NCBI GenBank assembly: GCA_035317145.1
Contig: DATHHM010000312.1
Location: 1 to 41,902, forward strand
Length of the DNA stretch: 41,902 nt
Direction: 5' to 3'
DNA from: Xanthobacteraceae bacterium
Lineage (GTDB): Bacteria > Pseudomonadota > Alphaproteobacteria > Rhizobiales > Xanthobacteraceae
The notes beneath the pieces were generated by a model. The model was not told where the DNA came from and ran no database searches. It worked only from the letters and a program-made list of their open reading frames with translations. Made by a program: the position numbers and the translations under genes. Positions within the stretch are counted from its first letter, which is position 1; each line of letters begins with the position of its first letter. Positions 9,194-9,412 of this stretch are shown here, in pieces.

Positions 9194-9412
9194 TCAGCTA
9201 AGACAGCCGGCGATCTCTTCGCTGGTCGGAAAGCGGCCGGTCGCCTTCTTCGAGTACGCCAATCGGCCGTCAACGCGAATTTCGAAGACGCCGCCGCCCG
9301 ACCGCCGCAGGCTCAACTGCGCCGAGGGTTGCAGATTAGCGATCAATTTCCCCGCCTCACGGGCGCGCGGCTCGTAGCCTCATTGACCGCAATATTCGAT
9401 CTCGATCTTCAT
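9194..9412 (-). CDS. SelW/SelT/Rdx-family thioredoxin-fold protein with in-frame TGA (candidate selenocysteine, CGQU motif); absent from the ORF track
   Basis: Manual translation: MKIEIEYCGQ-TGA(9382..9380)-GYEPRAREAGKLIANLQPSAQLSLRRSGGGVFEIRVDGRLAYSKKATGRFPTSEEIAGCLS-stop. Matches the Rdx pattern IEYCxxC/U ... GGxFEVxVDGxLxxSK..GRFP. AGGA lies 7 nt upstream of the ATG. Confidence 0.65.
9350..9370 (-). promoter_or_regulatory. Candidate bacterial SECIS-like hairpin downstream of the in-frame UGA
   Basis: mRNA CCGCGCGCC-CGUGA-GGCGGGG. Core stem CGCC/GGCG is extendable with bulges. The 5-nt apical loop has G at position 2 and starts 19 nt after the UGA. Confidence 0.35.

Follow-up and report, generated by a model that had tools for sequence, protein, structure and literature searches.

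A probable SelW-like selenoprotein gene with an in-frame UGA and a SECIS-like hairpin in soil Alphaproteobacteria

The stretch of DNA analysed here, hereafter the window, comprises 41,902 nucleotides from a bacterium of the Xanthobacteraceae (contig DATHHM010000312.1 of assembly GCA_035317145.1) and carries, on its minus strand, a short reading frame that contains an internal TGA codon. On direct translation, the ATG at 9412..9410 opens the ten codons MKIEIEYCGQ, the TGA at 9382..9380 follows, and the same frame then remains open for 61 further codons (GYEPRAREAGK...AGCLS) up to a terminal TGA at 9196..9194. The original prediction, which had read this arrangement as a candidate selenoprotein gene, had placed all these parts correctly. 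The upstream ATG is preceded by a Shine–Dalgarno motif (Table 1), and purine-rich GGA or GGAG motifs precede the same ATG in relatives. The genes around the locus are ordered binding protein, nitroreductase, DUF4189, SelW-like, extradiol dioxygenase and NMT1. The neighbours agree with the earlier description of the locus as lying between a Cys-rich secreted paralog and a secreted unknown, the downstream one being an ORF of no assigned identity with a hydrophobic N-terminus.

Table 1. Features of the SelW-like locus in the window and of the orthologous neighbourhood in L036
Feature	Sequence	Coordinates	Strand	Details
SelW-like (Rdx family) predicted selenoprotein CDS, full length	window	9194..9412	-	72 codons + stop, MKIEIEYCGQ-U-GYEPRAREAGK...CLS; orthologs colinear across 72 codons, 82 sequences
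In-frame TGA, putative Sec codon, residue 11, second position of C-G-Q-U	window	9380..9382	-	TGA in 82/82 Sec-type orthologs
Cys8 (TGC), putative resolving/partner cysteine of CxxU	window	9389..9391	-	Cys in 82/82 orthologs; end of strand beta1 in model
Shine–Dalgarno AGGA, 7 nt 5′ of ATG	window	9420..9423	-	read directly
50-aa stub, TTG start at 9346, reported by gene callers for full gene	window	9194..9346	-	ORF list; P0016
Candidate SECIS core hairpin, stem CGCC/GGCG (9365..9362 with 9356..9353), apical loop CGUGA (9361..9357)	window	9353..9365	-	RNAalifold consensus
Extended candidate SECIS stem: 6 bp, bulged G, 2 more bp in most species	window	9349..9370	-	alignment, energies
Upstream neighbour, DUF4189-like, Cys-rich, signal-peptide-like N-terminus	window	9880..9488	-	
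SelW-like gene	L036	6001-6216	+	ortholog
selD	L036	7589-6372	-	492 bits
selA	L036	7613-9058		576 bits
selB	L036	9083-11158		430 bits

The assignment of the joined product to the SelW/SelT/SelH (Rdx) family, proposed at first from its residue pattern, is borne out by profile searches. When Cys is put in place of the TGA, the product scores 64.8 bits (E=8e-18) on Pfam Rdx (PF10262), whose gathering cut-off is 22.6, and 57.3 bits on the NCBIfam model TIGR02174 'CXXU_selWTH' (cut-off 34.2). Against the Campylobacter-type equivalog NF041051 SelTWH_Campy it scores 75.2 bits, below the cut-off of 88, and is thus related to that group without being a member of it. When the PDB was searched by sequence, every match was an Rdx-family protein (MIEN1 2LJK, Atu0228 2FA8, SAV_2001 3DEX, 2OKA, 2OBK, 2OJL and 2P0G), and the CxxC motif of such matches (e.g. 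2LJK, 2FA8 and 3DEX) aligns on C8-G-Q-TGA11, with the second Cys at the TGA position. Structure was modelled with AlphaFold on P0005, a homolog that naturally has Cys at this position and shares 79% identity with the window protein. The model (pLDDT 88.3, pTM 0.75) has the thioredoxin-like topology b1-a1-b2-b3-b4-a2, with the CxxC between strand b1 (E4-10) and helix a1 (H16-29). When it was compared with the PDB by Foldseek, the top 23 matches were all Rdx/SelW structures, including mouse SelW 2NPB (TM 0.69-0.88), and thioredoxins came next. By these profile matches and the model of its Cys homolog, the product of the locus is a member of the SelW/Rdx family with a predicted Rdx fold and the motif C8-G-Q-U11.

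A protein search returned 310 relatives. Relatives are also encoded by 520 stretches in a scan limited to one genome for each species; of these, the 80 best were examined. These 80 are 63-96% identical in protein sequence to the window gene, L004 reaching 96%, and come from Xanthobacteraceae, Pseudolabrys, Hyphomicrobiaceae and Acetobacteraceae, including the isolate Rhodopila globiformis DSM 161; an exact match for the window's 63-nt sequence was absent from the species-representative genomes. The prediction had left it to the orthologs to tell whether the codon is TGA or a Cys codon in relatives. It is TGA in every one of the 80 species-representative genomes (best 80 of 520) and in one metagenome contig, and TGC or TGT at exactly that codon in rare relatives; counted over all Sec-type orthologous sequences, 82 out of 82 have TGA there. 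Across these 82 TGA-bearing sequences, codons 5-9 and 12-18 encode invariant amino acids and vary synonymously. Ile5, Glu6, Tyr7, Cys8 and Gly9 never change, with synonymous variation at Tyr7 and Gly9 (for the latter GGT 34, GGC 24, GGA 20 and GGG 4), and Tyr13, Glu14 and Pro15 on the far side of the TGA are likewise invariant residues with synonymous variation. The alignment indicates purifying selection at the level of the protein over codons 1-10 and 12-22. Decay had been named as a sign of a pseudogene, and the orthologs contain no frameshifts and have never lost the first ten codons. Judged from conservation in 82/82 sequences together with the Rdx match at E=8e-18, the TGA pattern is far beyond chance.

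Downstream of the UGA, the hairpin CGCC-CGUGA-GGCG that had been described as SECIS-like is present, its loop starting at the 19th nucleotide after the UGA and bearing a G at loop position 2. RNAalifold, run on a gap-free alignment from codon 10 to +57 nt, independently returned the same element, a 4-bp stem CGCC/GGCG closing a 5-nt loop CGUGN, which occupies nucleotides 22-26 (U of UGA = 1) and presents G23 and U24. Standard pairs fill 89.9% of cells in the 8-pair structure, a share that falls to 27-61% if the 3′ partner columns are shifted by 1-3; two C-G>U-A changes are compensatory (L054 and L075), and G-C>G-U occurs nine times. As the hairpin is almost invariant, covariation is thin, and this near-invariance is itself the main evidence for a SECIS, the support being comparative. 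At conserved 4-fold codons, the third base has an entropy of 0.29 bits in the five that fall in codons 15-20 and of 1.36 bits in the other fifteen (Mann–Whitney U=0, p=6e-5), a strong suppression of synonymous variation over the hairpin. The loop Arg codon, which supplies both the G and the U, is CGT in 78/82 sequences, whereas the share of CGT among Arg codons is 5.7% in the remainder of these genes and 8.4% in the genes of the window.

Thermodynamic folding of the 66 nt after the UGA gives energies no better than those of shuffled sequences (z=+1.88). The window clade has GGG at codon 21 and not CGG, which places a G-G mismatch in its extended stem. In the consensus register the window hairpin has a predicted -5.8 kcal/mol for the core and -7.6 when extended, and L036-type sequences reach -14.2 kcal/mol; a competing register in the window lies at -8.4 kcal/mol, and the pair probability is about 0.45-0.5. 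When 39 nt from the UGA onwards are folded, the MFE structure of the window sequence includes the consensus hairpin. Searches with Rfam, over the whole window at gathering thresholds and over 9280-9430 permissively, gave no match to a SECIS model, returning tRNA-Lys and chance matches; this tRNA-Lys (CTT), at 35663-35738 (-), is the single RNA gene detected in the window.

Relatives that have replaced the codon shed further light on the element. Four Cys-form relatives from different subclades (L003, L087, L088 and L089) have TGC or TGT at the codon aligned to 9382..9380 of the window and retain the complete hairpin, including the rare CGT codon. The simplest reading suggests repeated, recent and independent Sec>Cys conversions that still carry a fossil SECIS, and part of the nucleotide constraint may alternatively have another cause. 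The DNA behind individual protein records is CGA for P0002 and TGC for P0005. A CGA (Arg) codon, one transition away from TGA, also stands at the Sec position in L002 (3031-3033) and in protein P0010, with the hairpin otherwise intact; in L002 its single change is a synonymous wobble, GCC>GCT. Such CGA forms (L002 and P0010) may be inactive alleles, or variants of the population or the assembly.

Profile and RNA searches detected no selA, selB, selC or selD within the 42-kb window, and we therefore infer Sec decoding in the source organism from its relatives. In the Pseudolabrys relatives L021, L035 and L036, a tRNA-Sec is found at a distance of 3-5 kb from the ortholog. In L036 and L035, selD, selA, selB and tRNA-Sec are all directly beside it, an arrangement found in part in L021, L038 and L040, and selD adjoins the SelW-like gene in L038 and L040 as well. 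The protein and tRNA assignments in L036 are all far above the equivalog cut-offs. The selD match in L038 (6380-7069) covers residues 176-405 of the L036 SelD only, which may reflect a truncation, a break in the assembly or a Sec-type SelD with an in-frame UGA. The neighbourhood of the window gene recurs in L004-L009 and L011, its proteins being 88-99% identical, which marks these MAGs as very close relatives, and all seven keep the TGA. Related soil bacteria also carry the cluster fdhA(UGA)-fdhBCE-selA-selB. In three of these (L084, L085 and L086), the hairpin after the UGA of fdhA has G and U at nucleotides 23/24, as does the SelW-like hairpin.

Taken together, the Rdx profile matches, the conserved TGA, the frozen hairpin and the sel genes beside the ortholog of relatives support the original reading, and the locus is very probably a SelW/Rdx selenoprotein gene in which Sec is inserted at the in-frame UGA by way of SelB and the downstream hairpin. 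Translation would start at the ATG at 9412. With the UGA at 9382..9380 in the A site, the hairpin 12-27 nt downstream, with its loop CGUGA and G23/U24, would recruit SelB-GTP-Sec-tRNA(Sec), so that Sec would be inserted in place of termination and translation would continue to the stop TGA at 9196..9194. The predicted product is a 72-residue, 8-kDa oxidoreductase of the thioredoxin fold with the active site Cys8-Gly-Gln-Sec11, in which Cys8 would lie at the end of strand beta1 and Sec11 at the N-terminus of helix alpha1. The pair would cycle between selenolate/thiol and selenenylsulfide, as in a thiol-dependent redox protein. We infer that the source organism inserts Sec and, from what is known of the family, that SelB binds the hairpin and that the redox chemistry is as described.

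Other readings of the same open frame have to be weighed against Sec insertion. A pseudogene, that is a SelW/Rdx CxxC gene killed by a TGC>TGA nonsense mutation, could be imagined given that TGA is one base from TGC or TGT, that Cys-form relatives exist and that the window lacks Sec machinery. The same TGA nevertheless recurs in 80/80 species genomes (best 80 of 520) down to 63% identity, the conserved codons flanking it vary only synonymously and without frameshifts, and decay cannot explain a freeze of synonymous sites over a hairpin. The reading was rejected on these three counts, and its probability is next to nil. A gene in which only the 50-aa ORF from TTG 9346 is real and the upstream ten codons form an untranslated leader is extremely improbable and was rejected too. 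It has in its favour that databases hold 49-50-aa stubs as proteins, but a start after the TGA is not conserved (the first possible one falls anywhere between codons 20 and 57, and 15/82 orthologs have no ATG, GTG or TTG), and for this reason the stub cannot be the gene. Moreover, the upstream codons 1-10 and 12-22 are under selection, a Shine–Dalgarno motif stands before the upstream ATG, and the Rdx profile and PDB alignments need residues 2-22, which hold strand beta1 and the redox motif.

Decoding of the UGA by a tRNA other than tRNA-Sec, be it a near-cognate Trp or Cys tRNA or a reassigned code, would be in line with JGI records that give W at the position (P0001 and others). TGA is, however, the main ordinary stop in the window, ending 16/26 genes, and it also terminates the SelW-like gene itself, which shows that its meaning has not been reassigned; since the DNA of L001 reads TGA, the W is an artefact of the translation table, and with this the reassigned-TGA reading was rejected. 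Since only Cys or Sec would be functional at the catalytic position of CxxC/CxxU, and Sec machinery is adjacent in relatives, non-Sec readthrough as a whole is exceedingly unlikely. It is very unlikely, finally, that the gene is a relic, intact as a selenoprotein gene and yet terminating at the UGA because its genome gave up Sec decoding recently. Such a history would agree with the lack of Sec machinery in the window, with the independent Sec>Cys conversions in the clade and with the frequent loss of selenoproteins and of the Sec trait in bacteria (PMC1794560). Against it, the gene, its Shine–Dalgarno motif and the hairpin core are intact, its protein is 96% identical to that of L004, seven close relatives with the same synteny keep the TGA, and lineages that abandon Sec show conversion to Cys, which the window gene has not undergone.

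As a selenoprotein gene, the locus would join a family with a well-documented prokaryotic record. SelW-like CxxU proteins have been known since 2005; with 48 genes they outnumbered every other selenoprotein family of the Sargasso Sea survey (PMC1088965). In 2006 they were catalogued in bacterial genomes, and Cys homologs were noted to be few among organisms that use Sec (PMC1794560). The window gene resembles these prokaryotic SelW-like genes (PMC1088965, PMC1794560) in its family profiles, in a CxxU motif with Sec second, in a single domain of about 70-80 aa, in a hairpin with G in a small apical loop just 3′ of the UGA, and in the rarity of Cys homologs within a Sec-using clade. It differs from the surveyed members in its hosts, which are soil Alphaproteobacteria (Xanthobacteraceae/Pseudolabrys, Acetobacteraceae and Hyphomicrobiaceae), and in its motif C-G-Q/M-U followed by an invariant GYEPRAR. 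The Cys-form Rdx proteins of Agrobacterium tumefaciens (Atu0228, 2FA8), Pseudomonas fluorescens (2OBK), Streptomyces avermitilis (SAV_2001, 3DEX) and Vibrio cholerae (2P0G) superpose on the Cys-homolog model with TM 0.80-0.88 and share with it a redox motif between strand beta1 and helix alpha1, but they have CxxC, are about 30% identical and extend to roughly 100 aa with extra terminal residues. Mouse SelW (2NPB) and MIEN1 (2LJK) are likewise of the Rdx family, with CxxU or CxxC and a thioredoxin-like fold; eukaryotic SelW, however, depends on a SECIS in the 3′-UTR, on SBP2 and on eEFSec, whereas the putative SECIS of the window gene lies inside the CDS directly after the UGA, as in the bacterial SelB type. 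The best point of reference for the latter is Escherichia coli fdhF, in whose SECIS the upper stem-loop spans nt 15-31, beginning 11 nt past the UGA, and contains a bulged U17 and, in the loop, G23/U24 (PMC8659212). The window hairpin is similar in lying within the ORF, in its small apical loop and in G23/U24, and its stem begins at a distance of 12-14 nt from the UGA, against 11 nt in fdhF. It departs from fdhF in having no bulged U17, a stem of G+C throughout, a loop of 5 nt (CGUGN) and not 4 nt (GGUC), and, in the window clade, a lower stem broken by the G-G mismatch.

This is a known family (SelW-like CxxU) with no new mechanism, and what is mildly new is the alphaproteobacterial host range. 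In the 2006 survey Alphaproteobacteria were credited with one selenoprotein family, and FdhA was named as the sole selenoprotein of the Sec-decoding members it covered (PMC1794560); the SelW-like gene would add a second family to a class to which early surveys assigned FdhA only. Its hairpin offers a clean, nearly invariant example of a probable SECIS that could be used to train predictors of bacterial SECIS elements and selenoproteins. Two further ideas are speculative and unlikely. One is that the alphaproteobacterial SelW-like protein might be a dedicated partner in selenium metabolism, for instance reducing or delivering selenium for SelD, as suggested by its position directly beside selD/selA-selB-selC in Pseudolabrys; being seen in one clade only (5/80 species), this linkage may be a single chance rearrangement. 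The other, separate from it, is that the hairpin might act as a selenium-responsive translational switch, as suggested by the persistence of the invariant element even in Cys forms.

The practical value of the finding lies in correcting annotation. If the in-frame TGA encodes selenocysteine, as we argue, this explains why gene callers report a 50-residue stub. The gene had been predicted to be missing from ORF calls, which holds for the full-length Sec reading; the 50-aa downstream part, on the other hand, is present in the protein database (P0016, tagged with PF10262). Many of the 310 protein relatives are stubs of 40-50 aa, named 'Rdx family protein' in GenBank MAGs (49-50 aa) or 'selT/selW/selH-like putative selenoprotein' at JGI, and some are 72-75 aa long with W, R or C at residue 11. 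JGI metagenome calls put Trp at the Sec position in P0001, P0003, P0004, P0006, P0011, P0012 and others, and the DNA behind P0001 has TGA there (L001:163-165). A false W has in this way been planted in the active site of database sequences, and, with orthologs in public records either truncated or bearing a spurious Trp, selenoproteome counts for soil Xanthobacteraceae and Acetobacteraceae are probably too low.

Several observations on the surrounding genes were made along the way. In the Pseudolabrys MAGs the tRNA-Sec gene lies wholly inside the 3′ end of the selB ORF, at 11042-11137 within 9083-11158 in L036, 11077-11172 within 9118-11193 in L035 and 2938-3033 within 979-3054 in L021. Nested selC has been described for Alphaproteobacteria in a study that makes no mention of Pseudolabrys or Xanthobacteraceae (Mukai 2021, PMC8124441), and the Pseudolabrys MAGs match that description. 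The FdhA reading frames at L084:2088-5162, L085:2098-5166 and L086:2099-5167 each contain a single in-frame TGA (between ..FDNQARV and HGPTV..) and are called as two genes; fdhA is followed in all three by fdhB/C/E, selA, an unannotated 265-aa ORF without a Pfam match, and selB. Within the window, three Cys-rich paralogs with signal-peptide-like N-termini and the motif WGC[GA]ATDG...C.I.SCS.S.H are found at 7014-7568 (+), 7595-8047 (+) and 9488-9880 (-), one of which reaches the DUF4189 threshold, at exactly 25 bits. These paralogs flank the SelW-like gene in the window and in its closest relatives, and their copy number varies.
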